A stretch of DNA of 64,000 nucleotides from the NCBI GenBank assembly GCA_036172245.1, contig JAYWIR010000007.1, positions 2,170,001 to 2,234,000 on the forward strand. Direction: 5' to 3'. The notes beneath the pieces were generated by a model. That model was not told the DNA's origin, did no database searches, and saw only the letters and a program-made list of their open reading frames with translations. A program made the translations under genes and the position numbers. This DNA is from Raillietiella orientalis (lineage: Eukaryota). Within the stretch, counting starts at the first letter, position 1. Every line of letters starts with the position of its first letter. Shown piece by piece: positions 3,001 through 64,000 of this stretch.

Positions 3001-4822
3001 ATCTCCTGAGGGAAAACGCGTCCTTTCTTCCCCCCTTCCAAGCTCCTCCCCTCCGCGTGGCAGTGAGAGCAGAAGGCACGCTCCCGAGGATTCCCGGGAG
3101 GGAGGCTGGCACCTCTCCCGCTCCCGCTCACCAAGGGAATGCACGCGCTCTCCGCGAGAGCGAAAAAAACGGAGGACCCAGCTCCCTCCCGGCCCCAGCC
3201 TCGGGGATGGAGTGGAGGGTGGGTCAAGGACTCCGCACCCCAACCCACGGGTCGCCGAGTCCCTGCCCCGCCGCCGGGGAACGGGGGAGGCGAGCGCAGA
3301 TGCCGCCGACCGGAGGCGGCGCCGGGGAACCGCAAGGTCCGCGTCGTACACTCAGGGGAAGGGGGGGGGGGGGGAAGCGGGCGGTCCTCCCGTGGGCGGC
3401 GCCTCCGCCCCCTCCGCCGCAGCCGGGCGAGCGACCTTCGCAGATCCCGCGAGGCGCGCGCGCGATCCTCGCGGCGGCGCCGGCGCGCACCTCGGACGGA
3501 GAGCCGTCGACGGTAACGGGAAAGAAAAGGAGGGAGGGGCCGAGGGGCTGGAGGCGGGGGCAGACCTCGCCGCGGGCGCAGGACTTGCCTCCTCCGCCGC
3601 TGCCGCGCCCTCCCATCACGAAGGGAACGAGGGCCGGGTGCGCCAGAGCGGGTTCCATCCCGCCCTGGCGCACAGCACGCGGCACGCAGTCGGCTGGAAC
3701 CGGGCTGTCGGAGCAGAGAAGAACCTGGGGTGAAAGGCAGAAGGGTCGGGAGGGAGCGGTTTCGAGGCGACGTAACACGCTCCCGGTCACGTGGGGCTCG
3801 CACCGGGATCCTTGCATTCCGAGAGCGCTCTCGCGCCAACCTGCAGTCCCTCCCCCGCGTGCGCGCATTCCAACGGTTGTTAGGTGCGCGCTCTCCCGGA
3901 GCCGCCCCGCGCCTCCCCCTCCTCTTCGTACCAGGTCGCATCCCACTTTTGCGAGGAAGACAGGCGGAGGTGAGGAAGAGGGGACGAGGAAGGCAGGAGC
4001 GAATGAGGGAGAGGAGATGCCGCCGACCAGTGCCGACGGTGCGCGCGCGGGGAGCTGCAGCGTATGCGGGGGAGGAAGGGGGACCACAAAAAAAAAAAAA
4101 AACGGAAAGAAGGGGAGAGGAAGGTCGCGGCAGGCACCGCCGCACGAGCGGGATGAGCAGCGGCGACGACGGCATGAAGGGGATAGGAAAAGAAAACAGG
4201 GAACCGCGGGCCGAAAAGGGGGGGGGGGCACTGCCTCCGGACGAAGACGGTCGTGTCCGCCTCCGCGTGGAGCTGCTGCTGCTGCTGCGCGCCCATGGCA
4301 ACGAGCCGGTCGTCGAAGAGGAGAGGGGGGAGAGGGAGAGAGGAAGATGCGAAAGAAGAGGAAAAGGGGAGGGGGAGGAGGCATCCTCGTCCGTCAGTGA
4401 TTTACGAAGGGTGGGAGACAAAGACGACCCGAGGCTACAGAAGCCATGCGAACCAACATTTGATCTCCCGACAGCTGTCGTCCGAGAGGAGGGACGAGAC
4501 GGGAAGGGGGAGGAGGATGAGGAGAGAGGAGAGGCGGAAAAGAAGGGGAGGAAAGAAAAGGGGAGGAAGAAAAGAAAGAAAGAAGAAAAAAAAGGCAGAG
4601 GGAGGAGAGCCTGAGGGGAGAGAGGCGAAAGGCCGGTGCACGGGCGCTGCTGGGAAATTCTCGCAGCATCTGGTCAGAGCCAGGCGACGCGGAGAGCGCG
4701 TGGCCTCCCGCGCATGCGCTGCCTCGCACTCCGAGTAGCGTCGTCGTCGTCGTCGTCTGCGATCGCCGCCGCAAATTCGGGGCTCCCGCTCCCCCCTCTT
4801 CCCCCCATCAATCCAGCGATCA

Positions 4823-4878
4823 GGGAGCGCGCGGCGGGAAAGCGGAAAAGGGGAGCGCGCGGCGGGAAAGCGGAAAAG
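4823..4878. repeat. Perfect 28-bp tandem duplication
   Basis: gggagcgcgcggcgggaaagcggaaaag x2. Confidence 0.9.
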
Positions 4879-7435
4879 GGGAGCGAGCGAGCGGACGCTC
4901 GCTCGTTCGTGCGCCTCTTCCAGGATGATGAGGAAAGGGAAACGAGGGGGAGCGGTTCCAGCGTTCTTTCCCCCCCCCCCTCCCCCCCCTTTCCTTTCCG
5001 GCCGCCGCTCGATCCCTCCCTCTTCGTCCTTCTGGAAAGGAGTGGACGCGTGGGAGGGAGCAGTTCCTCCGCGCGAGCAGGCGCGCGCGAGGAAAGGGGT
5101 GGGTGGTGTGTGCCTACGTTGCCGCCAGCGTCGCCATAATCCAGCACCGCTGGCAGCGCTCCCGCTGCCGTCCCATCGCCAGCGGCGCCGTTGCCATTGG
5201 CGTCGCCACCCTCCCCGTTACCACGACTCCCTCTGCCACTACCGCGATCGCTGCTATTCTTAGTAGCGGTACTTCGGAAACCGCTGCTTCCCTCCCTCCA
5301 CGAGTCTTCCACTACCGTCTAACGCCTCGAACGCCGCTGCCATTGGCAACGTCTGCCATCGCAGGAAACGTTGCTGCCCCCAGCCAGGCCCCACCCCCAT
5401 CTCGATATCTACCACTGGCGCCTGCCTTTACTAGCGCTGAGGCCGTACCACGTGTTCCGGCGGAGCGCATCCCCCCCCCTCCTCCTCCCCGCAGCAATCG
5501 CTCGTCTCCCGGCTCCAGGAATAGCGAGGAGAAAGGCGGCGGCCGCCCGGGAGCCTGCCGACGGACCGGGGGTGAAGGGAAGAGGGAAAAGCACGAGAGG
5601 GGGATCTTCGAGGAAACGGAGAGCTCTCGCCCTCCTCCCCTCCCACCTGCCGGCAGACGTCTCTTCCCGGACAAGCGAGGAGGGCGGGAAGCGGGGGATG
5701 CGGAAGCACTCCCGAGGGGGACAACTCGCGACGGGCGTCCCTCGTACAGGGGAGGAGGGGGGTGGGATGGACGGGAGAGGAGTGTTCCGATGCGCCCTCT
5801 TACGGAGGCGGTGATGGTCGAGCGATATACGCCTTTCCGGCGTCTCCGAGGCAACCGCGAAACGGACGTTCGCCACGAGGGAGTCTGTTCCTTCCGCCGC
5901 CCCGCCGGACGATCCGGAGGGGCGGGACGGCCAGTGAGGACTCTGCGGCGTGCCGGGAGAATGTGACCCACCCGCTTCCCTCAACCTTCCTCGCGGGATG
6001 GGTGGTGGGGGGGACATCCACCCCAAAAACGCCTTCGCGCGCGCGCACACTCCGAGCAGGCGCAGAAGGACTCACCCGGGCGCTTCCCGAAGACCACGGC
6101 CACCAGGACGATCCACAGGCACCTGCGGGGGAGGAGCAGGGCAGTCGCGGGTTCCATGCCGCTGGGGCGTCGACGCCTGCGCGGAATCTTCGCACTTCCT
6201 TCCTGCGCGCGACTCCCGGGATCTCCCGCGGAGAGGCGATGGGGGACTCTGGGGGAACGAGGGGTGGGCGCGGGCGGAGAGCCGGCGGACGACCGAAGAG
6301 AGGGAGGAGGAGCGGAGAAAAACGCACGGGGTGGCACTGGGCGTTCAGCTGCTGCGTGGGTCAAGGAACTAGGAAAGGGGGAGAGACAGATTACGTCACG
6401 GGCATGCGCGAGGGGGCACGCCTCCCCGACGCCCCTGTCGCGGTGGAGGCGCCCCTTCCCCCTTCCCTCGATTCCCGTCCCGACCCCTTCTTCGGGAGCG
6501 CGCCTCCCTGCCCTCCGACCCTCTACCCCCTTCCCCACTCCCTCCCGGACGACCCTCCGTGATTTGGGAGGCAGGGGAGGTCAGCGTGCCGCAGCGCGGC
6601 GGCGGCGGCGAGAGCCGCGTGGTTCCTCCTCCCACCAGCTCGCTCTCTCGCGCGCTCCTTTCTCCTCCTCCGTTTTCGTTCCGCGGGGAAAAGAATTCCC
6701 CTCTTTTCCCGGATGCTGGCTGGCAAGGTCCTCGTCAGCCCGTCTGGGCGCAGCGCAGGGAGCTACGGGATGGCGCACGCTGCAGCGTGTGGAAGGCGGG
6801 AGAGGGAGGAGGGCAGTCGCAGCGATGAGCCGGGGAAGAAGGTGGCGGTGGTCCCGGTGGGCGGAGTTCCTCGGGAACCCGCGCACGGTGGCGGAGGGGG
6901 GGGTCGATGCGAGGGGTGGCGAGAGGGCGCGGATGGGGGAGGAGGCGAGCGGAGGGAGGGGAAGGGAGCACAGGGAGAAGGGGGGTGGGGGCAGAGGCGA
7001 AACAGCTGCTGCGGGCGCAGCCTGAGGGGTCGGAGGGGGCGATCCACCAGCACCACCAGCACCACCTGCGTGTCCCGCGCGCGAGACACGCGCGCGCGAG
7101 CACCACACGGGAAAAAGGGGGAGGGGAAGGGAAGGACGAACACGAAAGAGCAGCAACAGCCAGCCAGCCGCCCGGGCTGGAGAAGCGCGCGCGCGACGGC
7201 GTTGCTGCCGCAGCCGTCCGCGCCGACGCGCACCCAGCGCAAGGCAACGCGACTGAGCGGCGAGAGCGACTCCCAGCAACTCGCCAATCCGCCACCGCGG
7301 CTTCGCTTCCTCCTTTCTTCTTCCTCCCTCCCTCCCTCCCCCCCCCCTCTCCTCCTCCTCCTCCGTACTCCTCCCCTTCCTCTCGATCTTGCCGACCGAG
7401 AGACGCCCCGCTCCCGGCAAGCGCAGGCTGCCGCC

Positions 7436-7458
7436 GCTGCTGCTGCTGCTGCTGCTGC
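7436..7458. repeat. (GCT)n microsatellite
   Basis: Seven perfect GCT units. Confidence 0.85.
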
Positions 7459-10400
7459 AACAGCGGAGGCAGTAAGCGTTGGGTGACGCCATCGGGAGGA
7501 AAGGAGGGCGACTGGCGCTCACTCGCGCGGTGGCAGCTGGAACCTCGGAAGCTTCCTCTCTTTGCCGCATGCGGCATGGGCGAACCTTTCGAGAGGTTCT
7601 CCGGAAGCTCTGGCAGACCCCTCTGAGACCACCCCGAAAGGGATCGTGGGATGGAGGAGAGGGAGTGAGAGGTGCCACGTGGATGTAAATCCAGGATAAG
7701 CCTTCTTTTCCCTGATGCTTTCCGGAGTGGCGGTCTCGTTTCCCGACAAAGGGAGAGAAGCTCCGTATGTCAGAAATACGACGCGAGATGGCGGCGGAGC
7801 GGGCGAACGGCTTGCTGCGAGACGACGAACTTTTCGACCGCAACGTGTGGGGAGAAAGTGGGGAAGGGAAGCGCGGAGAATGTTGGCTGCTTTCCTAGCC
7901 TTCCTATGCGCGGTCCGGCAATGCGGAACTGCTCCCCCTCCCAGAGGAGGGAAACGCAACTCTGGAGCTGGAAACCCTTGGTCCAGGACCTCCCCTTCCC
8001 CCTTCCCTCCCTCGCTTGTTCCGTCCCCGTCGAAGAGCCGACTGCTGCTCCCCGGAGGCGGACGGGAGGATCCGCGGGGAAGCGACGGCAACCTTCCACA
8101 CGGACACTGGAAACCTTCGAGGGCAAACGGAGCTTTCGCTTCCTGCTTCCCCTTTCTTCCAGGATCCCTTCTACCCCGAAAACCACCGATCGAAAGAACC
8201 GTCGAAATCGAAGAACCCCCCGATCGCCTCCTTATCAACCCCCACCCTGGTGAGATCGCGCCGTCTCCTTCCGGCTTACGGGAGGCACTGGCACGGCCGT
8301 CCTGGAACCGGACGTCTCTTCAACAATGGTTCCAGTGGGAACGGCGCGCCTGCCATACCTCCCCTCCCTCCTCCCCTTTCGGCGCACGTTCCCGAACCCG
8401 AGTGAGGGAAGCGAAGATGACGCGCCCTCACTCCGCTGTCCTCGTCCTTCTGCTTCGAGCCAAGGAGAGGAGGAACGACATCTTTCCGAGAGTGCAGCTT
8501 CCCGTCGAAGAGATGGGTACCTCTCTGGAGGTTCCGAAACATCCCTCCTGCATCCAGCCCCTCTCCAACCCGGAGTCCCTCAGTCGCCTTTCCATCGTTG
8601 GTTCTGTCTGATTCCGTAGCCCTTACTTGTCCAGAGAAGCGAAGCGCGCTTGTGCCGTGCCCCGAATCCCCCTGGACCATCAGCAACGGGACCCGAGCCA
8701 GCTCGTGGGGCGTAGAGGTGGGTCCCTGCGGAGCGCACGTTCCCCTGGATTTTATCCTTCTCTCTGTCTCTGTCTCTCTCTCTCTCTCACCCTCCCCTCT
8801 CCCTTTCAAGAGAACCAAGGAAAGAGGACACGGAGCTTCCGTCTCTCAAGGCTCTCTCTGCCTTCCCCGATATCCCGGAAAGACCGCTGATTGGGATGAA
8901 GGAAGATGTTCAGCATCCCTGCGCCTGCATCCGCAGCGGCGCATGCGACCCAGGAGGTACCTCGGGACACTTCCCTAGGAAGAGGGAAGAGGAAGAGTCC
9001 CGGAATGGGGAAAAGAGAGGGACAGGATACTCCGTGCCCCCTAGCCAATGTCGTCGCTACACCCGCTTGGAAGGAAGTTCCGTTGTCGGGGCGACGGCAA
9101 CGGGTCACTTTCGGAGCAGAAACCTCCCCCGTATCCCTCCCTGCTCTCTCCCATGGAAGTCCACCCTTCCTGCTCCTGCTCTTCCCGAAGGGGCGATGAA
9201 AGGAGAATGGGGGGTTCGCTCCCGATGCTTTCTCTGCTCCTTCCTCCTCCCCCACCCCCCCAACCGCCGCTGCCGTCCCTGTTCCTGGAGACAGTTTGGC
9301 TGGTAAAACCTTTCCCGGAAGGTGTACCCTGTGTCCAAGGGCCTTAGAGAGCTGTCCATTTCCTCCCCCCCCCCCACTTCCGTCTTTCCCGCCCTTCCTT
9401 CCAGGAGTCAGTACCGACTCCTCCCGGCTGTGCCTCCGCGCCTCCAAGAAGGTCGTTTTTCCCGACGTCCAGGGCGACCCGCCGTCAAGGTACAAAGCGC
9501 GCCGGAGCGAACCCGAGGAAAGGGAAGCCTTCCATCAGCCCATCTCCATCTTCCCTCCATCTCTTCTCACCCGGCCCCACCCCGACAACGAGTCCGCGCG
9601 CTCCGCCTTCGACGACCGAACACGCGGGATTTCCCGTGCGCGCGAGTCCGACCGACGAGGTTTCCAGGCAACTCCCCCGCTCCAGCTTGGGTGCGCCCGC
9701 GCGCATCCTCCACGGAAGGGGGTAAAGTAGGGGGTCCGATCGTGCTTCCTCGCGATCCCCCTTTTGTCGGAAATGGGGAGGCGCGTCCCAAGTCATCTGG
9801 CTGACGCCCCCGCAGGCCTTCGCAAATGGGTGGAAGAAGGGCACGCAAAAGGAGGGCTTGACAAGCTTTTGGAGAGGTCACGGGACAACCAGGACCCTCA
9901 TTCTACACCCTTTCTCCCCCCTTCCCTCGACACCACCTCGAATGCGGCGAGAAAGCGCGCGCCGCCGATGTCATCCTCTCGACTCGGTCGGTCGGTAGCG
10001 GAGCACGGATTTTCCTTTCAGGTCAACTTCCTCTTCCCCTCCTCTTGTGACCTCATGCGGGGGGATACGGGGAAGGGTCACAGACGCGAGGAGGTCAGGG
10101 ATTCTAGCCCACTACCTTGGACAGAACCAACCTGCAACCGCACGCCGAGGCGCGCGTTTCGCTTCCCGACTCTCCCCCCTCCCTTTCCCCCTCCTCCCTG
10201 TCCCCATTCTCATCAAAAAAAAATGAAAAAAGGCTTGTGCGCTTGCGTGGCTTTCTGACGCTCTCGCGAGTCGCATGGTCTCCACGCACCGGGAGCATGC
10301 GCTTCCCCGCTCTCGCAAGCTCAGGAATGGGAAGCAGGCGAGCGAGGAACGAGGAGGGGGGTAGAGGCTGGAAGGGTACTCCCAGCAGCAACAAAGGGGT

Positions 10401-31369: not shown

Positions 31370-32346
31370 ACAACTCTTGCATTCGTTTCACGTTCTGAAG
31401 TGGCGGCTTCGGGCCGTCTCAGTTTCCATGGTTCTGCGAGCACCCTCATTGGCAAATAAAAGAGAATCTACCCTGGATGGCTTCCACGAGAAACCCAAGG
31501 CCTTCAAACCCAAGCAGTGGGAGATCCTCTACACGCTTGCTGGAGAGACAAGACCGTTTATCGGCTGGAAGACGAGCGAGCTGGCAGACGCTGTCACTCC
31601 TCGTAGTTGTGCGGAGGGACTCCTTCGGTGGTGCGAACTCTTGAGTGTACCTCCCGAAGAACTTGTCGTACCTCTTTCGTTTTTTGGACTCCTCTGTGTT
31701 CCTCCTTCGGTGGCAACACGACGTGCTCCTGCGGTTGCATTGAGGTTTCCATTGCAATCAGCGCGCGAACCTCGTTTCCGGAGGAGTTGTGTCACGGAAA
31801 TGCGGAAAGTGCGGAGCAGTAGAATCGCCCCCGCACCTGCCCTTCGACTGCGGTGCCCTCCAAGGACTGTGGCGGGGGCCGCCTTCAACGCTCCTTCTCC
31901 AGGGGGACACCGCAATGGACGTCATGCGCCGCTTCCTCACGTGCGGCCGCCTCTCGCTATCTGCGGTCATCGCAACTGCCTCTTGCATCCGCGCCATCGT
32001 CATGGCCCGCCACCTGTTGGAGTCGCGAGCGGTACCTAGCGAGGTCAACAGGATTGCAGACGTCAACATGAGGACGGCTCATCTAAAGGAAGTGAGGAAG
32101 GCGCTCGCCGGCATTTAGGGTCGGTTCTGAAGAAGAGGAACAACGGAAACCAAAGACCCCGATCCCCTCCGCCCGACCCCATATCTTTTTTTGTATTTTT
32201 TCATTACATTCATGGTCGTGTCCCCCTCGTTCCGGACTTTCAAAGTTCCCAACCTGCTTGTCGGGAACCCCTTCCCTTGAACTTCTTCCCCGTTGGGAAC
32301 TTTATTCCCTGCTGTGAGCGAATAAATGCCGCTGCGCAACCGGGTG
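31370..32346 (+). mobile_element. Decayed LINE 3' fragment, second subfamily - copy B
   Basis: GWKTSELADAVTP..GLLRWCELLSVP; CGKCGAVESPPHLPFDCGALQGLW; AATAAA terminal motif. Confidence 0.8.
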
Positions 32347-33718
32347 ATAAAGGACAAACGCAACCTTCCTTGCTGACGAAGTGCAAAGGATGAGAAACAG
32401 CGTGCACACTTCCTGTCCGTAAAGTCCGCGAGCGGGAGGCAGGAGGGGAAAACTGGAAATGTGCTCGCAAGACGCCACGCCGAGAGGCGGTGACCCCCAC
32501 GTGCCAACCAGTCTCGGTGACCTGCGGACGAAGAGTGCGCCCATTCAGACGGAGAGGCTGTGAACGTCCGCGCATACTCTCGGCGACCAGTAAGGCAATC
32601 TTGGAAGATTTGCATGGAAAGCAGGGTTATGCCCCGAATTCCTGGGCTCCTGCAAGGCGCGTTTCGATCCACAGAGGACAGAGTGAAGAGTCTCCGTCTG
32701 TGTGTCTCTCTTTCACGTTGCACCCTTGCCGCCGGTGCGATGCAGTCTGTCCAAGTCGGTTTGCGGCGGAAGAGTGAGTTGCTACCCTCTATGTCGGAAG
32801 ACATGGAATTGCTTGGCGATACGGAATGTCCCGCATCCGCATGCGACGTATCACGCCGGAGCGGAGACGAACCTCAACGCCGAGAGGTCCGAAACGAAGT
32901 GGTGAAAATCTCCTCCTCCTTTTTGGCAACACTGTCTGCTTGCGTTCCACTTGAAGACTCGGAGGTTCGAGTGTTGACCCGCGAGGGATCGCGTTTCGCT
33001 GATCCCCATGGATTAATCGAAATCTGCATCGAGAAGAGCTGTTGCTCGGAGGATCAAGTGGGGGAAACAGAACGGATATGGATGGAGCAGAGATTTCATT
33101 CGGTTTCCTGTTCCGCCGCTCTCGAATCAAGACGTCGGCTACAGAGCGTGTGCTTGTAAGAAGGCGAATCATCACGTACGATTCACCCGCCTGCAGTCAA
33201 CCCGGGGCAGAGCCCGAGTGCCAGTCGAAAGGAATTCGCGGGGTGCCGTACGGGCCTGAATGAAAGGATTCGGATGGTCTCCTCCGATGCAAGGCGAAGA
33301 AGGCTCACGGTGAGATTCACACATCCTCGGATTCACAGCAGCTCATGACGCAGCGACGGATCCTCTCTGAGAGAAAGACGAAGCCGTGCAGCGAACTCAC
33401 GGGTCTGAGTGAGGCATCCTGCACTTGCAGGGCGCTTCAGCTGCTGCCACCTACGTCTTCCCACTCGTTTGGCTTTTTGTGTTTCCTCGTCGGTCGTCGC
33501 TTGCCTCCTGAGCCAAGAAGAATAGCAGTTGTCCTGGTACGATTCGCTCCGGATTTCGTCATTCTTCCGTATTTCCGGAGACTGTGACAGCAGCGCCACC
33601 AACGGCATGAGTGCGAATTGCACCTAGTGTGCAAATTGGATTTTTAATCTTCTCCTAATCTCTGCTTCGTAGCATGCCAGCATGTGTCGAGATTCACATG
33701 GAAAGTAGACAGGCTCGA

Positions 33719-34690
33719 CATCCACTTGTACCGGGTCATTTATTCATAAAAACAAACACACAAGGCAATGACAGGACGTTTGGTCCCGTCGCGTTACATG
33801 CATATACGAAAACAAACCTGCCGGGAACCGACGCTCAAGCTGGCGAGGTTTCGCTTCGACAGCAGAGTGGAAGAGGAAACAAACGAAAAGAAAAATATAA
33901 CAAAAAAACGCATTCAGAAGAAAAATTGGCAGGGTTCGGGAAGAGATCACCGGCTGCTGGACGGAATCCTCTGCCTCCTTTTAAGGATGCCGACAAGTTT
34001 CTGTTTTATGATCCCAAGATGGGACCATCTCAACGATATTCTCATGAAGAGGACGGTAAAGTATATGGCGTCCCTGCCATCGTGGCCTCCTCTGGTGTTG
34101 CTTTATGCAGCCACGATCCCGCGTAGGCAGCAAACTGCTGCTAGAGATGCATTCGGCTTGAGGGTTCCGCGAAGGAAGAGGCACTTCAGAACGTCTCTGC
34201 GCTTGCCCTCGAGGATCCGCAGGGACGCGGAAAAGTGTGTCCACAGGCGTCAGAGGGCAACGCAATTCATGAGCAGATGCGGTAGGGACACTCCTTCTCC
34301 AAAACTGCTGCAGTTGGGGCTAGCACTCCCCCGGGTCCAGTGGTGTCGACGGGCCTTTCACGGGAGGCCCCAATGCAACAGTAGGATCGCCGAATCCTGT
34401 CACTTGAAGGGGAGGATAGCACTGCTGCAGCACGCTGCGGGGCACTGTATTTCTTACCGAGGAATTTGTTGTAGTAGTTCTTCCAGCGTAACAGCCCTTT
34501 TGGAGGGACACTCGGGGTGGCAGCGTCCGCCAGCTCCCGAGTTCTCCGCGTTCCCAGATGTTTCCTTTTCTTGTCTACAATGCAAGTCAGCTCCCACCTT
34601 GCCGGAAGGCCACTGTCTCTTGCTTACCGTAGGAAGGACAACACTGGGGCAAGGGAGGTGAACGACGCTCAATGCAGATTCCCGGTTTTA
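33719..34690 (-). mobile_element. Decayed LINE 3' fragment - copy C
   Basis: The minus strand carries LHWGLP, the zinc-finger region and the 3' UTR stem CTGCT...CCCGGCAGG, with AATAAA at 33739-33744. Confidence 0.8.
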
Positions 34691-35130
34691 ACAAGGATCT
34701 TCCTCAACGACTGACGAGCGTATCCACTGTTTCCTAGGCAGATGCACTCTGCTTCGCTCGTGTCGTTGATTTTTCCCCATGCGAACAGTGACTCTTGCAG
34801 GCAAACAGCTCAGTTAGCAGAGATGACAGAGATCCAGGGATTCTTTCGGAACAAGGCAACTGTGTGTCAAAGCTGCGATGGCTCTAACTTCGATCGGTGG
34901 CCATGTCGGACGAAGTCAGTCCCTAGTGGTCAGTTGCTTTCTTGTCAAGGATGCGCTCTGGAGAGCACCAAGGTGTATCCCACAGCTTTGACAACAGTGC
35001 GATTCTTCAGTGCGCCTTTGACCAAGGACGGGAAAGGCACCAAGGTACGCCTGGAGCCCGTGTGGTCACGGTAAATCTTCGTAAAGCTTTCGTATGAGCA
35101 GACCAGGAAATTCTTCTGAAGTCTTTCTGG

Positions 35131-36249
35131 AACGTCTCTGGGCTTTCCACCATCCGGTATCCCGAGGGCCGTTCCAAGACGATCCCAAAGAATCCGGAGG
35201 GCAGGGCAGTCAACTAGAAGGTGGGGGAGGGACTCCCGCTCCTCACACCTGGCACACGCAGGATTTACTCTTCCCCGCGTCCAGTGGAAGCGGCGCGCGT
35301 TGCAGGGTAGACCCCAATGCAGCCACAGAAGCGCCGACTCTTGCCACTTCAGGGGAAGAATCCTGGATACACTAATAACCGGGGGCCACTTCAGGTCATC
35401 TGACCGGATGCCGAGCAGCTCGCCCCATCTTTTTAGTCCTCTCGGCTGGACACTAGGGATCGTAGCGTCTGGCAGCTTTCCCATGGTCCAGCCGCTCATC
35501 ATCTTCTCTCTGCCTGCGATACGCCAGCAGACTTGCCACCTCGGTTATTATGGATCCAGGATTCTTCCCCTGAAGTGGCAAGAGTCGGCGCTTTTGTGGC
35601 TGCATTGGGGTCTACCCTGCAACGCGCGCCGCTTCCACTGGACGCGGGGAAGTGTAAATCCTGCGTGTGCCAGGTGTGGGGAGAGGGAGTCCCTCCCCCA
35701 CCTCTTAGTTGACTGCCCTGCCCTCCGGATTCTTTGGGATCGTCTTGGAACGGCCCTCGGGATACCGGTTCCAGGTAACCCCAGGAATGTTTACAGTCTT
35801 CGTGCGGGACTCCCTGAAGCCAGCCGCAGCCCTGGCAGCACTTTGCTGCATTCGTGGTATTGTGGCGGCCTGGAGTGATGCCGAAGATGAAGATTGCAAC
35901 GTAACGGACGTCATCCCGTATGCTGTTCGCTTCCTGCAGAGAGCTACCGGATGGCCCCAGCTGGGCAGAATGAAGGAAGACCTCGAGGGCATCCTGCAAA
36001 GGATGGGCCCTCCCCTCAGTGGAATTTGATCCCTTCCCGTTCCTCCAAACACTTTTTGTTTTTGTTTTTCTTATTTTATTTTTATTTTTGTTTTTTCCCC
36101 CATCCCCATCCACTGCCGAGGGGAGTCACACCGAGCTGCGTCCCGGCGTCCCGGCAGGTCCCTTGTTGTGTAGCCGTTAGTGGGGTCTTGTACCACGTAT
36201 GTTGTTGACCAATGCGAAGTTTTAATAAACGTCCCGGGGTACCCGGGTG
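35131..36249. mobile_element. LINE 3' fragment with inverted 5' part (35131-35546 minus; 35554-36249 plus) - copy D
   Basis: CARCGERESLPHLLVDC zinc finger present on both strands; 3' UTR homologous to copy E. Confidence 0.9.
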
Positions 36250-36262
36250 GCATCTCCGAATC

Positions 36263-39200
36263 TCTTCGCCAATTCCTGAGAGGCGTCACCCTCCAGAGTC
36301 TCGACGACTGGGACCTTTTTAAGGACTCGGTCCGCGAGTTCTGCCAGCAGTTCCCCATGGACCACCTGCTTCGGGGATTTGGCGAGGGGGCTCGCAACGA
36401 GCACGCGTATTTACATGCGCACCGTCACGAGAGGACCCCCAATGTCCGTCGGTTGGCCGAATACCGAGCCGGGGCCGAGCGCCAAGCCTGGCGATCCGGG
36501 TTGGCCAGCTTGCTGGACGATCTGGAACGGGAACGTTCGTCCCCGGCTGCGGTACGGAATCTCGTGCAGTGTTTTTATTCCTCCCTTTACGCCAAAACAC
36601 CGCCAGAACGAGACGCCTCGCGGCGCTTGCTCTCGAATGGTGCCGTGGCGATAGAGGAGGAAGAGAGGGAAAGCCTCGATGAGCCTTTCACGACCGGCGA
36701 AATTCACGCCGGAATTGAAAGGCACAAGAGGCGTAAGGCGCCAGGGGAGGACGGCCTGCCCGCGGAGTTTTTCCAATGCTTCGCGGCAGAGCTGGCACCC
36801 CTGGTGCTCGAGTTGACGAGACTGATCCGAGACGAAGGCGATGTTCCTGCCTCGTTTCGGTCAGCCAGGGTGAGGCTCCTTCCAAAGGGAGGAGACCTCA
36901 GAAAGTTAAGCAACTGGCGTCCGATCACAATTGCGAACACGGATGCCAAGCTGATTGCCGGACTGTGGGCATCGCGTTTGGGGCAGGTGGCAGACTCCAT
37001 AATTAGCCCGGAGCAGACTTATGCTGTTCCCGGGCGAAGTATGGAGGCCAACCTCTTCTTCGCGAGCACATGGTTTCACGTGCAGCGGAGTGAAAAGAGA
37101 GAAAACGGGAAGATCGGCAACCCCACTTTGGGGCCGCCAGTCGGGCAAGGAAGGGACAGTCGGGTGTCGAAGAGAGCCCTAGCGATCGCAGTCGATCTGC
37201 ATAAGGTGTTCGACTGCGTGGACCAGGAACTCCTGGAGCTCCTTGTTCTCGTGGGCTTCCCACCCTCCCTTCTGACCTACCTGCGCTCTTGTTGGCGCAG
37301 TGTGATCATAAACGTTTTTTTCAGCAGTCAAAACGTGCCGGTGCGCCACGGGATAAGGCAGGGCGATAGCCTGAGTCCTCTGCTCTTTAGCACCTACTTG
37401 GAGTTGGTGCTGAGAGCGTACAGGGCGACTTTGGCTGCCTGGCCGAGCTCGTGCCCCGGCACGCCCGCAGTAGCAGCGTACACCAACGATCTTCTGCTTT
37501 TGCTCCCCATGTCCGCTCCGGCAGAGGCAATCGAGGGTTTCTTCGATCTGCTAGGCCGCGGGACGGGACTGCAGGTGAAGAAGGCAAAGTCCGAAGTCGT
37601 CGGTGGTGTCGGTTGGCGCGACGTGGGTTGGACGGCCTGACTGGATCCGCTTGGGGATCCCCACGGCCAGGTACCTGAAGTACCTTGGCGTTCCGTTGGG
37701 AGACTTCTGTCCGTCAGAAGCGTGGTCAGGTCTTCTCCTGAAAGTAGAGATGGCGATGGGCCCATTCCTAGAAGGCAAGTTCCTCTTGCGGTATGGAACG
37801 GGCCGCGGTATGGAACGCGTTTGCGGCTTCCATCCTCCGCCCCCTGCTTTTTGTTTGCCCCGTCCTCCTACTTTTGAAAAAGAGGACGAAGGACCTCCTA
37901 CACATCGCCCTTTGGGGCGGCGGGAGGCCTCGTGTGCCTCTGGAGGATTTGCACGCTCCACGTCGGGACGGAGGTCTTAGCGTCCTGACGCTGGAGCGCG
38001 TGGAAACACAGCTGCGGTGGCGTACCCTAGCCATCGCGGCGAAGATGTGGAGCACCCCTTGGTGCGTTCCGGCCCGCCTCCTCGCCAGACGTGTGTCCGG
38101 GACTGAAGGACTCGCGTCTTTTCTTCTGTGCCCCGGCCGAAAAATAAGAAGATGCAGCCTTCTCCTAGGACGCATGCCCACCCTGGACAAGAAGAACGGC
38201 TGGATGGTCTGCAACCCCGCCAACTCCAGCGCATGGCTGCAAGAAACAGTTGGCACGTGGGCAAAGCTCAACTAGTCCGGAGGTGAATCCTGGAACCGCC
38301 TGCGACCTGGCATCTATACCCCCTGCACGCTGCGGAACATGATCGAGTGTCCCACCAGAAGCATGGGCGGAGACGACCCCACTGACCACGGCGCTGCCTT
38401 TCCTGAGAAGGGCGCTTCATAACAGCCGGAAGCCGAGGTGGCAAGTCACCTGCCGGATAGCGGGCAAGGAGAAGGAGTTAAGTGGGTGGACCATGAGGGA
38501 ACTGCTTGACGCCGCGAAACCAAGCGTTCTCCCGCGAGGAATCCAAAGATGGGGCGAGCTTCTTGGCATCCCGTTGGATGACCTAAAGTGACCCCCGGTA
38601 TTCAGAGACGCATCCACCCTCCCCCTCAATTGGCAGGAAACGGCGCTGCTGCTGCTGCACCGGGGTCTTCCCTGCAACGCACGCCGCCACCACTGGACGT
38701 TGGGGAACGTGGGACAGAACTGTGCAGTGTGCGGGAAGAAGGAATCCCTCCCCCATCTGTTAGTGGACTGCGCTGCCCTCCAGCCCTTGTGGGAACATTT
38801 TGCTACGACCCTCCGGATGCCGGTCGGCAGTCCCCCCAGAGACGTTGTCACTCTTCGTGCAAGACGCCCTGCAACCAGTCTCAGCCCTTGCAGCGCTCTG
38901 CTGCCTATGAGGGATTGTGGCTGCGCTCCACGCAGCCAGCAGAGGAAGCAGCGATAGGGACCCCATCGTACACGCAGGTCGCTATCTGCGAATCGCGATC
39001 GGCTGGTCCCATCTGGGAGCCATGCAGAGGGACCTCGAGGGCATCCTGGAAAGGATGGTCTCTTCTTCCAGCGGGATGTGATCCCTTCCCGGCCCTCCAA
39101 ACTCTTTTATTTTTTTTTTCTCAATTTTATTTTTATTTTTGTTTTCTCCCCCATCCCCTTCCCCTGCCGAGGAGAGTCACAGTCGGGCTGTGTCTCGGCG

Positions 39201-39308
39201 TCCTGGCAGGTCCGATGTTACGTGGCCGTTAGTCGGGCCTTGTACCACGTTTTTTTTTGTATTGACCATGCTAGAAATTTTAAATAAACGTTCCGGAGTC
39301 TCCGGGTG
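36263..39308 (+). mobile_element. L1/Tx1-like non-LTR retrotransposon, 5'-truncated, inactive (RT, zinc finger, 3' UTR) - copy E
   Basis: RT motifs FYSSLY, KAPGEDGLPAEFF, LLPKGGD..NWRPITIANTDAK, EQTYAVPGRS, DLHKVFD, GIRQGDSLSPLLF, YTND (YADD position mutated), GLQVKKAKS, KYLGV; CAVCGKKESLPHLLVDC; several frameshifts; flanked by a 13-bp duplication. Confidence 0.95.
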
Positions 39309-40250
39309 GCTTCTCCGAATCCTGGGGGAAGACGGTGCATCGGGAACTGTTCTCAGAACTGGTGGACTAAGCGTTACAACCGGTCTCAGTCCTCAAGATT
39401 CTGCCCTCACACTGGAGCCTTGCAAGAACACACGACTCTAAGGAGGCTCACCCAGTCACCTGGAAAACACCATCCGCTATTCGTGGAACCCTTATCGCGC
39501 GGACAAATTTCCAGCTCCAGCCGTTAGTGGTACGACAGCGCCGACCGCACCATGCCTCGCCTTCCCACCCGTGCCCACAGGTGGCTGTCGAGGAAGACAT
39601 GATGGAGGCTGTCCTCCATCACGGCCTCACTAGCCAACCAGTTGCGCGAGTGTACAGACGAGCACGACCCGTACGCCAAGTTACCCTTTCCGTTCGAGGC
39701 CCCTGATGGCAAGCGGAGATTAAAATCTCCGGCCACCAGGTGGGTTTTTTGCATGTCTCCTTCGGACAGCCAGTAGCGCCGCAGGCTTACGAACATCTTT
39801 CGCTCAGGAGGAATGCCTCAGCCGCTAAGGGCGCGAACATTCGTGATCATGAGGTCGATCAAGTCGGACAACCTGAATGTCAGTTAACTGACCAGACCTT
39901 CCTTCTCGAAGCGCACGCCCTTCACAGAGTCAGTGAACGCTGCACTCTGGAGAGGTGACACCCCCGCTTCATGGTACGAGGAGGAGGGTCCTCCCCGAAA
40001 GCACAGGAGCTTCGACCCTTTGCACAACCGGAGGGAAAGTCCCACTCCTTCATTATGTTTCCTAGAAGCACCCGGAGCTCGACTCCCAATTCTGACCGTT
40101 CATCGGGGCATCTGGTTTTCTCAGCTAAAAATGCCGCACACGAATATAGCACGACCAGCGTCAGCACGCAGGAAAACCTCCAACACCGGACGCACCCATC
40201 CCTCGCCATCGATTCTTTCTGAGAATTCAAACTCACGCTTAGAGTCACGC
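39309..40250 (-). mobile_element. Decayed LINE ORF2 N-terminus (APE endonuclease plus linker)
   Basis: NVRAL (NVYAP-like), LVAGDFN, LHHVFLD (RLDRIF-like), LSYH (SDH-like); linker LED*DRL*RLVHQF*EQFPMHRLPPGFGE aligns to copy E LDDWDLFKDSVREFCQQFPMDHLLRGFGE. Confidence 0.8.
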
Positions 40251-40645
40251 GCGCAGACCGTGACTACGTCGTCTCCGAGGCGAACGAAAAGCAATAAGAC
40301 AATACACACAAAGCAGCAGTCATGTCGTTGGTGCTGAAGAGAGCACGAGCCGGGGAAGAAGACTCTCCGAACAAGCAAACAGCCACGCGACAGGGTGCAA
40401 AGGTTTAGCACCGCAGACGTGAACGTCCACGGCTCACAAGCAGACTGAGGAGGTTCCCTGGAGAGAGAGCGCCTTTCGCTTAGCAGCCACCCACTCCTTG
40501 CCTACCCTTCGCTACTATCTCTGGAACTCCGTTTCGTTCAACCCGTTCCCACGAGGTACAGAGTCGTTCACTGTTGCAAAAGTCTCCGGGCTGGGGACTC
40601 GTGAGAAAGACTGTCTTGTGGCCGCTCAATGCTTTCGATGACTCT

Positions 40646-41560
40646 CTCGCTGTTATGCCGGGGCAATTATTTTGTAGACTGATGGCGCTAGATTTTTGTG
40701 TGGAGTCCTAGGTAATGCCACGTGCAACGAACCTGCCTAAGACCGATGCACAGAGTCCCACTTCGGCAGCTTGGGTGCAGGGAAAGAAAGAAAGAAAAAA
40801 AAAAAAAACAATAGTAGACACGAAGGGGAAATTATACACGAGGGAGGGAGGAACCGATGAAGGGATCATAGAACATTGCAAGGAGAACTCTGCATCCTGT
40901 TCACGAAGCTGGGCGTGTTTCCTTGGCATTGCAACCCAGTGCCGCCATATCGAGGAGGTCTTCAGCAAGATCCGTGGACAGCCGATGCCATTTCGAACTC
41001 TTCTGGTATTCCAGGCTGCTACAATTCCACAAAGACAGCAGGGAACTGCGAGCGAAGTTGCTGCAGCAGAGCAGAGCGGCACACACGAAGAGGACTTTTC
41101 AAATGGCCGCGGTTGGCGCCAGCCGGGAGTCCTAGGATGGTCGCGAAAAGATCCCAAAGAGGTCGGAGGGCAGCACAGTCCAACGGCAGCTGCGAGAATA
41201 TCTCTTTCTTCCAACACCTATCGCACTCGGCGTCCACGCTCCCCCGTACCCAGTGGTGAAGGCGCGCTTCGTTCGGGATTCCCCATGCACCAACAGCAAC
41301 GCCAACTCCTGCCGCTTCGGGAGCAATGCGCCAATGTTCCAGCAATCTCGCGGACACTTGACGACTTTCAAAGGGATTTCGAGCAGCTCTACCCAACCTA
41401 GAGGTGCCTGGAGTGGGCCACTCGCGGTCGCGTCATCCTTCGCTTTCCGAGCAGTTAGCGCCTCCAATACCTTCTACCTTGTTGCTATGAGGAAAGTCAC
41501 TTCCCTCCTTCCCTCCTCACGCTGTCCCTTGCGTCCCTGAGGGAGGGCAGCGCAGAGGAA
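40646..41560 (-). mobile_element. Decayed LINE 3' fragment - copy F
   Basis: WGIPNEARLHHWVRGSVDAECDRCWKKEIFSQLPLDCAALRPLWDLFATILG; 3' UTR homologous to D/E. Confidence 0.82.
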
Positions 41561-47200: not shown

Positions 47201-49690
47201 GGACAACACCGGCGGCCATCGCTGCAGACGCTTCGCCTGCTTCGCGGGAGGTCAGCATGACTGGCTGCGGCTGGTGGAGCCTTTCTCCCTGGGGGAGGAG
47301 AGGAGGGAGCGACCTGAATGGACCTCGCCCACTCGTCCAAGGACCCTCCAGCACGCTGCCCTGTACAACAGATCCATCTGCCACGTACGCGAGCGAACGC
47401 GGGACCGCACCCACGTGTCCGCGCGCTCGTATGCTTCGACCGAGCGGGCGACTGGGCATGCGCCCGTCCTATCGTCCTTGCGAGGTAGGACCTCAGCCCG
47501 CACGACCTTTGACACCCGATTGCTCCGAGTCATTTATTGCTGCTTCAATCAAAAAATTCAAGCAAAAGAAAAGAAATCAAAGTTGAACAGTGCACTCCGG
47601 TTCACTGATTCCCACGAAATTCACCGGGACGCAGCTCCAGGGAGAAACCTGATGACTTGCCGTTCAAGACCAACCCGGAGTAGGAGGGGGCATGGTTCCA
47701 AAAATATCAATCAACAAAGAAACCTTCGTAGTGGGTTCGGCCGGAAGAGAGGGAGGACCGTCGGTGATCCCTGGAGCTGCTCGGCATCCTGTGCGGGTTT
47801 GTTGGAGCGCCATGCAGAAGCCCGCAGACCCTGGAAGATGGGGTGTGGGACGGATGTGCGATTGCAGCCCCGGACACGTCACTAACAGCGAAACCCATCC
47901 CAGCAAGGAACGACGCAACCTACTCGGACGTCAGCGGATCGCGAGGCGTCCGGCGTTCTCGTCCTCTGTCTCCTATATTGGGAGGCACGTATGCCGTCTC
48001 GGGTTCATGTACTTAGAGGTCAGCGTCGTAAGTTCCCCGAGCAACGAGAAGGTCACGCTCAGCACGGAGCTCCACCCCGCGTTTCCCCACATTCCGTCTT
48101 TCGGAGGATTCCATGGATTTTCAGACTGTGGACTTCCGCCTGCCTCTCGACCAAACCTCGGCCGACCACACCGGGAGTGTCCAGAAGACAAGGTAAAGAT
48201 GGGGTGTACAGTGTGCGGGCCTCTTGGATCGAGATGCATTCCACACGGATGCTAGAAGCATTCACCCCAACCCGCACGGCGAACGTAGTCGTGAAAGCAG
48301 CACGCGCGAAAGACGGGAAGTCGCCTACCGGTTCTTCTAGTCCGTGTGGTTCTTTTCTCAGGAAGAAACTGTTGCCCTCGACGCGTAGTGTTCCCTCCGT
48401 GTACACCGTGGAAACGGGACGAAGTCGTCTGGGGAGGACGAAGAGGGTAGGCGCCGCGGTACCTCTCCCCAGATGTCCTCCCAGAAGATCGCAGAACCCG
48501 TGAGCACACTCGTGTCGTGAGGTCTCCGTGACCGCGCGGGATCGGGAGGAAGATTTAAGGATAGGCGATCCGGGGACCGTCCCTACGGCAACCGCACGAT
48601 GGAAATTTCCGAAGCCCTCTGGTTTCAGATGCCTCGAAAAGGAAAGAAACTAAAATCCACTGGACGCGCGTTCCGTACCATTGCACTCCGGACGAACCCG
48701 AAAATCAGCGTGTCCACCTCCATCCAGATGGGGAAGGAGGAGATCCGTTCGAGGGGAGCGTGCGCCCCTCGCGACGCGCAAGCGCGCGCCCCAGTGGAAG
48801 TCGATTCGCATGGGTTGCGCCGGAACGCGACCGGTCCGCCCCACCGGACCCTCCGCTCATCTCCTAAGAAGGTCCCTTGCAGAGCCCTTGCATCCCTTCC
48901 CCTCCTCCTTTTCCTCGCGGCGAGATCTGCCGAACCCGCTCGTGCCTGGCTCCAAATTTGCCCTGCCGCACGGCAACCGCCGGCTCCCGATCCCCAGCTC
49001 GTCCGCGACCAGCTTTCCGCTTATCTCCCGCAATTCGCTCAACGAGGCGCTCCGGAAACCGCCCCCCCCCATCCGCTCCTGGCAACCGTTGCCTGCTTGC
49101 TCACCAGGACCGGCATCCCGCGCAGCGGTCCGCGAGCTCGCAAACGCGCAGGAATCGGCTCGGTCGCTTCCCTCGAAACGATGCAACGGAGTCCCACTTG
49201 CTTCCTGAGGGAATCCCAGGCTTCGATTGGAAGGACGGAACAGGGGCTGTGTGCGGATGGAAGCGCGGCCGGCGAGACAGCTGGCAGAGAAAGCCGAAGC
49301 CTTCAAAGGAAAGAGAAAAACATCATCCGAGCTTATTGAAAATGTGGGGAAAGCTGGTCGATGGCTTTCGCTCGACATGCGTCGAAAGCCACCTTCTCGA
49401 GCAAAGTTATCCAAGGAGTACATAATAAATTCAACATAATTGCATACCACGAAAACGAAATCGGAAGATCGATTAATGCTTCCTTCGTATTTATAGCATT
49501 TATTTTTCTGTATTTTCGGGTGTTCGTCTTCCTGTCGTTAGGGATAGCCATCCGCGTTTGTTTCCTGATCGGAATAATCTTTAACGAAGCATTGCCCAAT
49601 CTGAAATGGCTTGCGGGAGGCGACTTTTCGCTGTGTCCCAGGAGCGCAGTACTCGCTCGCTGTGGCTTATCCAGGAGCGCAGGAAAGTGT

Positions 49691-60346: not shown

Positions 60347-61100
60347 CACTCGGACCAGCGCTCGGGGCGTTTCTTTCATATAGAACAAAGATAAACAGCC
60401 ATAGTCTCTGTGGTTGGACCTGTGGCTCCAACCACGTGCAATTCAAGGGAGCCTGCCCGGGTTGCCGGTACTCAGCAGACGGGTGAAGTCTGCCGTGGCA
60501 GCAGGGAGGAAGGGGGGCAAATAAAAAGAAAAGAAACAAAGAAATAATAGACAAATTTGAGGGAGGGGGGCGGAGGAGCGTGAAGGGATCACGTTCTTCT
60601 GGGGATGGCTCCTTTGCATCCTCTGCAGGATGCCGGCAACCTCTTGCTGCACAGAGTTGTTCAGGTGGGGCGATCCCGTTGACATCATCATGAAACGGAC
60701 GGCGAAGTGGATGTGGCACCTCTTTCTCCGCCCTTCCCTCGCATCGATCCGGGCAGCGACGATCCAGCGGAGGCATCAGACTGCTAGCGAGACTGCCGGC
60801 CGAAAGGTGTCGCCAACGAAAAGGGGGTCTTAATGACGTGGAATGGAGTTACCACCGGGGGTAGCCGCATCCCTGGATGCCCGTCGGCAGAAATCGCAGG
60901 AAAAAGCTCCAGGAAGCTGGAAGCGGAACACGAGTCCCCATCGAGGAAACCATGCGCCATGCGACGGCCGGCTCGCCGCTCGAGTTTCACCCGGGTGTGC
61001 CAGGGCGTTTATTTTTCAACAAACCTATTACAGAAAAAACTGTGGTTGGACTTGTGGTCCAACCACGCCCTATTTAAAAGAAAACTGCCAGGTCAAACTG
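60347..61100 (-). mobile_element. Decayed LINE 3' fragment - copy H
   Basis: TGSPHLNNSVQQEVAGILQRM; 3' UTR very similar to copy G. Confidence 0.75.
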
Positions 61101-63300: not shown

Positions 63301-63447
63301 TATTGGAAGTGTGCTTTGTCTTCCTCCTCTTTATCTTCTGACATCTCGAAAGCTCGGCAACTGCGCTTTTCTCTGACTTTTCGGTAGGGTCCCTGGGGCC
63401 GGTGCTTATCAAAATCCAGAAAGATTATAAAAAACAAGTGCTTTTAT

Positions 63448-63536
<89 letters not shown>

Positions 63537-63668
63537 ATATACATATACATATAGTGCATGTTTTTATTATATGTGTATATATATATATATACATATACAT
63601 ATATGTATATATATACATATACACATATAATAAAAACATGCACTTGTTATATATATATATATATATAC
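63448..63668. repeat. (ATATGT)n / (AT)n microsatellite block with inverted repeats
   Basis: Perfect ATATGT array at about 63448-63535; 28-bp perfect inverted repeat 63553-63580 / 63617-63644. Confidence 0.9.
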
Positions 63669-64000
63669 AGATTTATTCTAACATATATATTTATTAATGT
63701 AATTATTGATGTATGCTGATACATTATAAATATATGTATTCAAGCTTATAAAAATATATGTGTGTATGTTTATTATATATATTTATGCATATACTAAATA
63801 TGTATGAAATGAATATTGAAATATCGAATTATAAACACGAATATTTTTGTCAAAGGATCAAAATCCTGAATATGCAATTCGTCATTTCCTGCTGGAAGTT
63901 TCATTTATTGATTGTTGGAAATGACAGAAAAATGAAATACCAGATACCCTTTTGTTTTTTCATTTGTTTGCTTTTTTATGTTTATTTTTTTACCACTATT

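Follow-up and report, generated by a model that had tools for sequence, protein, structure and literature searches.

Two LINE copies, termed here D and E, lie head to tail at a single nucleotide of an older antisense copy, F, in a stretch of Raillietiella orientalis DNA analysed over its full length of 64,000 nucleotides (the window), and the question raised by this arrangement is whether such stacking reflects the specificity of the insertion machinery or homology between the incoming element and the 3′ end of the resident one. A sequence-only reading of the window had proposed that two separate insertions hit the same nucleotide of an antisense host, and this proposal is supported (Table 1). 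With an identity of only 74%, D and E are not a tandem duplication. The two copies very probably arose by separate insertion events of an L1/Tx1-like family without poly(A) whose endonuclease is likely to recognise CCYTC^NCCRAAWCC (the caret marking the insertion point), with each insertion leaving a reusable site.

Table 1. Features of the stacked-insertion locus, in window coordinates
Feature	Position	Strand	Remarks
C, old LINE 3′ part	33714..35003	-	ORF2 C-terminus and 3′ UTR; outer end approximate
C, ORF2 C-terminus match	35003-33977		tblastn
Inverted remnant from the missing middle of the host	35022..35109	+	88 nt; 80% to L140 6510-6423; orientation opposite to C
Inverted D-subfamily piece	35131..35544	-	ORF2 C-terminal region; 6 bases at 35539-35544 common to piece and D
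D	35539..36254	+	5′-truncated L1/Tx1-like LINE, no poly(A)
Target-site duplication, left copy	36255..36262	+	TCCGAATC; spacer between D and E
E	36263..39313	+	5′-truncated LINE: ORF2 linker, RT, zinc-binding region, 3′ UTR
Target-site duplication, right copy	39314..39321	+	TCCGAATC; antisense of host GFG codons
F	39314..39964	-	older antisense host, endonuclease-to-linker part of ORF2; outer end is the tblastn match end, and the copy may extend

The 3′ end of D is composed, in order, of AATAAA (36224), a CCCGG-loop-CCGGG hairpin, TG and the tail GCATC (36250-36254). E, in which homology to the family begins at 36263, carries stops and frameshifts together with an RVT_1 match, ends in the tail GCTTC (39309-39313) and is a mosaic, with about 37900-39200 nearer to a sister family with RRAAC tails. 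The host copy F is cut exactly after GFG, contains 7 stops within its aligned part and is 72% identical to its closest long relative. On the other side of the stack, C ends in a degenerate AATAAATG at 33744 and finds its best nucleotide match (72%) at the locus, L140/L098, that is also the best match of F, which points to C as the left arm of the same antisense host. The inverted piece preceding D overlaps the first 246 nt of D at 94%, and the two together suggest a twin-priming-like 5′ inversion. This complex 5′ junction would have cost the host its middle 1.6 kb and D its left duplication; no match to the duplication adjoins the 5′ end of D, and the best candidate (33653) is imperfect and 2.6 kb off. 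These irregularities, with the mosaic structure of E, are what might be expected if the stack were a product of duplication, recombination or assembly, or a composite element copied as a unit. Such an origin is nevertheless highly improbable given the low identity of D and E, junctions that are base-exact for both family end and target, the presence of the exact 20-mer junction at other loci in different hosts, and the lack of a second D-E pair among the genomic matches of D and E.

The stack had been recognised from two 13-mers, GCATCTCCGAATC at 36250-36262 and GCTTCTCCGAATC at 39309-39321, which are indeed the sole exact matches to GCWTCTCCGAATC in the window. Each directly follows an AATAAAYG...CCGGGTG end, of which the window holds 5 and 100 shuffles none, and the right-hand one continues, as described, into a minus-strand ORF2 linker reading ...HRLPPGFG. 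Their interpretation as a 13-bp target duplication does not hold, as the family's own 3′ end supplies the first five bases (GCATC) and the real duplication, TCCGAATC, is 8 bp long, or 9 bp with an ambiguous C counted. GCATC, or GTATC/TCATC, follows CCGGGTG in 29 of the 30 best genomic matches of D, while none of the 18 isolated copies with a readable duplication carries GCATC in the left-hand duplication, where only 0-2 bases are in common with it; 36250-36254 and 39309-39313 are thus element end. The lone mismatch between the 13-mers falls in the tail of E, outside the duplication. The further suggestion that the duplication might run into CCGGGTG is refuted by the occurrence of AATAAAYG-N9-14-CCGGGTG on 2,935 element ends genome-wide (control 3), and a 20-bp duplication is ruled out along with the 13-bp one, CCGGGTG and GCATC both belonging to the element. 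The claim that the 13-mer is target rather than element end was accordingly correct for its last 8 bases and incorrect for its first five; the converse, that the whole 13-mer is element end, is ruled out by the last 8 bases changing with the host. Likewise, in the GFGEA codons assigned to the older copy, GFG belongs to the host and the rest to the tail of E, and empty relatives read GFGEG. Across the 18 isolated copies, duplications measure 8-17 bases (median 12, typically 8-13), the longest perhaps including 5′ microhomology.

The preference for one insertion site that had been suspected is strongly supported genome-wide. The site is CCYTC^NCC, used best when RAAWCC follows; in the opposite orientation it encodes GFG^EG in the ORF2 of sister L1/Tx1-like LINEs. 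Element ends of the form GGGTGNNAWC^NCCRAAWCC number 212 genome-wide against 0 for the control, and the site in its native context accounts for 612 of 203,101 CCYTCNCC occurrences (0.3%). NCCRAA follows CCGGGTGGYATC in 79 of 245 cases, compared with a background of 4,456/203,101 (2.2%), and these 79 junctions stand against about 150 true ends genome-wide. The left context of the 18 duplications is CCYTC-like (C13 C15 Y18 T12 C16). Empty hosts read CCTTC^TCCGAATCC and are hit at the same base: among relatives of F, searched with the host and not the junction, 5 of 15 evaluable loci contain an insertion there, with three different tails, and families with other tails (GCAAC, ACAAC, ATAAC, GAAAC) use this base as well. 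The differing hosts and truncation points indicate independent events. The counts include some loci duplicated segmentally or in the assembly (L107/L108, L103/L104).

For an unselected sample, 60 of the 100 listed CCGGGTGGYATC matches were taken and the 23 that were not element ends dropped, leaving 37 copies. Eight of these lie at the GFG site; the other 29 occupy looser sites resembling CCYTC^NCC, which makes the specificity a graded one. This majority off the GFG site might instead indicate that the family reads only a loose CCYTC^NCC motif and is attracted to, or survives in, LINE-only chromatin, where the GFG codons would be the commonest such motif; 112 of the 212 junctions do lie in contigs after C72 (409 kb and smaller), with many more near contig ends. 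This explanation is quite unlikely, however, since RAA continues just 57 of 1,062 CCYTCNCC sites even in LINE-rich loci, is over-used at non-LINE targets too (4/29), and the matches are strand-specific at one ORF2 base. The sites cluster in small contigs, so part of the enrichment may come from regional or survival bias.

The probable recognition of the extended site by the endonuclease also bears on how copies come to be stacked. Further stacks were found in contigs C37 (three copies) and C24, and two in sister families. Full-length 5′ ends that start with the right half of the target number 87 genome-wide, and another element end abuts 26 of them (30%), a proportion close to 212/(212+612) = 26% and as expected if stacking is mere re-use of the site. 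It had been suggested that the priming of E may have relied on homology with the 3′ end of its own family, in which case the RNA end (CCGGGTG-GCATC) would pair with the 3′ end of D and stacking would follow from self-homology and not from nuclease specificity. The terminal 12 bases of D and E are indeed in common, and the C24 stack suggests that later copies used the 3′ junction of an older one. Such priming is not needed to account for the locus, though, and is unlikely: it is unsupported because isolated copies use the same base in empty hosts lacking an upstream CCGGGTG, and it fits poorly with microhomology of so few bases, with the other tails found at this base, with a stacking frequency close to plain site occupancy and with the younger appearance of D.

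E may have inserted at the 3′ junction of D, as originally suggested, but the reverse is somewhat more likely here, with E probably entering first and D second. D has closer relatives (92.6% in the ORF part, 95.5% in the UTR) than E (89-92%, with 89% for the best genomic relative of its 3′ end), although the gap is modest and the best match of E is lowered by its mosaic structure, and the loss of the left junction of D means that the order in the window is not shown. The T in the tail of E agrees with the native target T, but among 149 ends GCTTC occurs twice, and the second instance lacks a target T, making it weak evidence of order, and it was dropped as proof. In the C24 stack, the left duplication fits the host type over ~18 bases, the spacers are 12 and 15, and the older copy is 92% identical to its nearest relative vs 97.6%, which suggests the opposite order, with later copies entering the 3′ junction of the older one. 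A search for the far end of the third element of this stack did not find it, and 14 head-to-tail loci compared for order gave no clear left duplication.

The family is related to the L1 group by several features. Natural open frames of relatives match Exo_endo_phos (3.7e-14) and RVT_1 (1.3e-21), with zf-RVT below cut-off, so that ORF2 follows the L1-group plan of an N-terminal APE endonuclease, RT and a C-terminal zinc-binding region, and 5′ truncation and target-site duplications are likewise those of this group. The best solved-structure match is human L1 ORF2p (2e-47, vs 1e-15 for R2). ORF1, absent from D and E, is present in relatives as a 584-aa frame with a zinc knuckle, downstream of the 5′ motif. 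Protein homologues are 22-30% identical and mostly unnamed, the exceptions being one unnamed 78% match and one entry named 'Transposon TX1 putative 149 kDa'. Family ends consist of AATAAA-hairpin-TG-NNAWY without the A-run typical of the L1 group. The case for the hairpin rests on a stem conserved across ends, because, taken alone, the hairpins of D and E are no more stable than shuffled sequences (z -1.1 and -0.4); Rfam over 33500-41000 gave two chance-level matches and no known RNA for this hairpin.

Insertion would proceed by target-primed reverse transcription, starting at a nick in the bottom strand at the caret, with 0-2 bases of microhomology. The site re-used by the second element may be the left copy of the duplication, in its native CCTTC context, or the 3′ junction, whose GCATC context is alike in 3 of 5 bases; the most likely course is that E inserted into F and D then inserted into the left copy. 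The resemblance of the 5′ end to the target would aid priming of the second strand and would turn every full-length copy into a fresh landing site.

The stack can thus be regarded as an expected by-product of target-specific insertion, and its interest lies in the target itself: the antisense strand of conserved sister-LINE codons, at which each family uses a base of its own. No precedent for a target in sister-LINE codons was found in the literature searched. Such a set of APE endonucleases, closely related and with readable specificities that differ, offers a natural series on the gain of LINE nuclease specificity, while the 3′ end, a hairpin with a 5-base tail that is independent of poly(A), and the target-like 5′ end provide handles on priming and second-strand synthesis. 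Antisense insertion destroys competitors and spares host genes, and may explain LINE-only regions of the genome. A more speculative and rather doubtful extension is that animal L1/Tx1-like LINEs form a guild, in which each endonuclease would read a different conserved antisense coding motif of its sisters (GFG^EG here; the HWxLG, LQEIH, AENAQE and KAF^D regions in others), a target hard for the host element to mutate away; 5′ ends with the right target half would make new landing sites, and the guild might build LINE-only domains, possibly centromeres.

Tandem insertion at one site had been described as a known trait of target-specific elements, and precedents do exist in Tx1-Mar/SINEU-3 and Zepp. 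The reported target-specific Tx1-clade LINEs include Tx1L in Tx1D, Tx1-Mar and SINEU-3 in Mariner-N4_AMi, and Tx1-8_Crp/Tx1-4_AMi in LTR elements (PMC4494074; PMC1950540). In common with the present family, these are described there as animal APE-RT LINEs with a preference for a site within another transposon and with tandem copies around one duplication that are read as sequential insertions; the 8 of 37 unselected ends likewise exceed the 20% of flanks in one sequence type taken as target specificity in PMC4494074. In contrast to the Tx1 targets given in these accounts (DNA transposon, LTR element, snRNA gene, microsatellite), the present family targets sister LINEs of its own group at the conserved GFG^EG codons, on the antisense strand; several sister families insert at other codons, and the end is a hairpin with a 5-base tail. 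An element RNA 5′ end with target-like sequence, thought to aid the 5′ junction, is also described for R2 and Zorro3 (PMC6895275; PMC3956500). According to these sources, R2 retains upstream 28S sequence and cuts with a restriction-like nuclease, and Zorro3 makes no duplication and carries poly(A) at each end, whereas the 5′ end of the present family reproduces the downstream half of its target, a site of mixed sequence from which the duplication is formed. With Zepp (Coccomyxa/Chlorella) and ZeppL (Chlamydomonas), as reported, the family shares L1-type insertion into existing copies, nested clusters that are mostly 5′-truncated, and clusters at assembly breaks (PMC8226300; PMC3446292). It differs from them in its animal host, in the one defined base and strand, in cross-family antisense insertion and in its many dispersed copies: nested insertion into its own kind is found, but instead of one cluster per chromosome and none elsewhere, copies are spread along all large contigs, with GFG junctions enriched in small contigs.

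Both 13-mers that the sequence-only reading placed at the 3′ junctions of D and E, two stacked 5′-truncated L1/Tx1-like LINE copies, are present where it put them, and they are the sole exact matches to GCWTCTCCGAATC within the window. D and E are colinear across their last 700 bases with only 74% identity, and are therefore separate copies. F, an older minus-strand LINE copy, adjoins E on the right and is interrupted after the codons HRLPPGFG. Open frames of relatives encode an APE endonuclease, a reverse transcriptase (RT), a weak zinc-binding match and an ORF1 with a zinc knuckle, and the nearest solved protein is human L1 ORF2p. The organism's HSP70 matches arthropod, mollusc and vertebrate proteins at 87-90%, which puts it within the animals. 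Elsewhere in the window, overlapping long open frames in GC-rich sequence lack a Pfam match (833-10258), and a short local repeat lies near the right end (63430-63805).

LINE copies and older superfamily 3′ ends in the window
Feature	Position	Strand	Description
D	35539-36254	+	LINE copy
E	36263-39313	+	LINE copy with RT domain
Older superfamily end	32321-32351	+	Window
Older superfamily end	47513-47538	-	Window
Older superfamily end	60988-61013	-	Window
Older superfamily end	29802	+	Window
Older superfamily end	33744	-	Window

Ends of the form AATAAAYG-N9-14-CCGGGTG occur 2,935 times genome-wide (reversed control, 3), most with a CCCGG-N5-CCGGG stem, and no poly(A) tail was seen among those read. 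After the TG comes a short tail particular to each family: GCATC, GTATC or TCATC in 29 of the 30 best matches of D, with AATAAA and GCATC both present at 147 ends genome-wide. In 71 ends of other families, A occupies the third tail position 68 times and the fourth 66 times. Every family shares AATAAA with no gap before a 5-bp stem, whose 5-base loop varies, then TG and an NNAA(Y) tail of 4-5 bases. The geometry is reminiscent of a histone mRNA end; Rfam returned no match for this shared poly(A)-less end. At one locus (C6:3675232-3675260), two GCATC ends of opposite orientation meet tail to tail around a short palindrome.

The tail bears directly on the target-site duplication, whose length had been mis-measured as 13 bp. 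Among the first 60 of 245 CCGGGTGGYATC matches, on the 13 largest contigs, 37 are true ends, and a plausible 5′-side duplication is readable in 18 of these. The 18 duplications span 8-17 bases (median 12) and always start after the tail; none of the left duplications contains GCATC, and only 0-2 bases are in common with the tail. The window duplication is therefore TCCGAATC, 8 bases long or 9 counting an ambiguous C, and the mismatch between the 13-mers belongs to E's tail.

The suggestion of a site preference proved correct. Immediately before the 18 duplications, the five positions favor C (13), C (15), C/T (18), T (12) and C (16), and beyond the cut the sequence at the 37 ends is N, C (28), C (35), G (20), A (19) and A (17). 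Empty relatives of F carry CCTTC^TCCGAATCC, which the coding strand reads as GFG^EG (^, insertion point). A search with F yielded 25 loci, and the site is readable in 15 of them besides F, of which 10 are empty and 5 occupied at that very base (two of the five are mutual duplicates), with GCATC, GCAAC and GTAAC tails. CCYTCNCC occurs 203,101 times genome-wide, continuing with RAA in 4,456 cases and with RAAWCC in 612 (control, 52). Element ends are followed by NCCRAAWCC at 212 positions, against none in the control, and NCCRAA comes next after 79 of the 245 CCGGGTGGYATC matches. In the unselected sample of 37 ends, 7 adjoin antisense ORF2 exactly at GFG, D being an eighth, and 29 lie elsewhere. 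Because host codons at the junctions vary (PPGFG, PAGFG, PRGFG, PWGFG, PSGFG, KRFG), as do truncation points, many of these events are independent, although duplicate loci are left uncollapsed in the genome-wide counts. LINEs of sister families insert antisense at other positions of LINE ORF2, each family at its own: immediately past HWxLG, close to LQEIH, beyond AENAQEIE..GGR or at KAF^D (L075, L085, L089, L090 and L092, with RRAAC tails; L001, L004; L005, L024, L128, L166; L126, L199).

In APE LINEs, reverse transcription is primed by a bottom-strand nick, and the duplication arises from a staggered second nick. The nuclease of the GCATC family, D and E's own, would read about 11-14 bases with graded stringency, and insertion would not need long pairing with the RNA end. 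The Tx1L nuclease is itself described as sequence-specific in part of PMC1950540. The family is Tx1-like in targeting, a label given by likeness rather than by phylogenetic placement. Passages of PMC4494074 describe Tx1 families whose targets are Mariner, Harbinger and LTR elements, microsatellites or snRNA genes, as well as SINEU-3 tandems with a duplication sandwiched between; excerpts of PMC8226300 and PMC3446292 have Zepp nesting into existing copies, one cluster per chromosome, and sections of PMC3956500 report poly(A)-less Zorro1/2 ends and target-like Zorro3 ends. No LINE aimed at conserved codons of sister LINEs appeared in the literature searched, which was mostly open-access and chiefly titles, with the original Tx1/Zepp papers and Repbase reports outside it.

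Full-length copies start with CCRAAWCC followed by a run specific to the family; the genome has 87 5′ ends of this kind (control, 0), and another element's end adjoins 26 of them. Forty 5′ ends were read, 20 picked for the prefix and 20 not: 24 lie in antisense GFG^EG hosts, 5 follow the end of an element, 2 occupy CCTTC^ sites outside host DNA, and the remaining 9 come from other families. The prefix is partly element-borne, since it occurs in a non-LINE flank (L225) and, at L232, behind a 7-base repeat distinct from it, and departs from the host's native run past about 6 bases (L234, L229). By analogy with R2 (part of PMC6895275), it may anneal to the top-strand overhang. Fetched loci include same-site stacks of three copies with spacers of 10 and 17 (C37) and with a spacer of 15 followed by a full-length copy (C24), as well as stacks in two sister families. 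With a stacking rate (30%) close to the share of occupied sites (26%), repeated use of the site suffices to explain the stacks, though the comparison is rough since the 612 count takes in 5′ ends as well as left duplications.

On its 5′ side, D is joined via 6 common bases to an inverted piece, 414 bases long, that derives from its own subfamily, and beyond which lie an 88-base inverted host remnant and then C, a minus-strand copy. C and F have the same best match (L098/L140, 72%) and would be arms of one host, with about 1.6 kb of host sequence absent between them. Across 35022-35544, which holds the remnant and the inverted piece, the latter overlaps D by 246 bases at 94%, long for simple twin priming. 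The best relatives match D at 96% across the final 370 bases and E at no more than 89% (by segment, 92.6-95.5% and 82-92%), a divergence clock weakened by E's mosaic make-up, drawn from two families. From 37900 to 39200 (+), E is colinear with the RRAAC-tailed sister family at 84-94%, and on both sides the GCATC family is nearer; gene conversion or template switching could account for this. E's GCTTC tail matches the native CTTC, yet is found in only 2 of 149 ends. On balance these sequences lean towards E having inserted first and D second. The C24 stack indicates the reverse order, so both copies of the target site seem usable for later insertions; 14 further head-to-tail loci gave no clear sign of order.

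GFG-site junctions and full-length 5′ ends accumulate on small contigs and at contig ends (C33 start, C51, C53, C72 and later). More than half of the NCCRAAWCC junctions (112/212) fall on contigs listed after C72 (409 kb) and many others close to contig ends, a pile-up that suggests LINE-only domains at assembly breaks.
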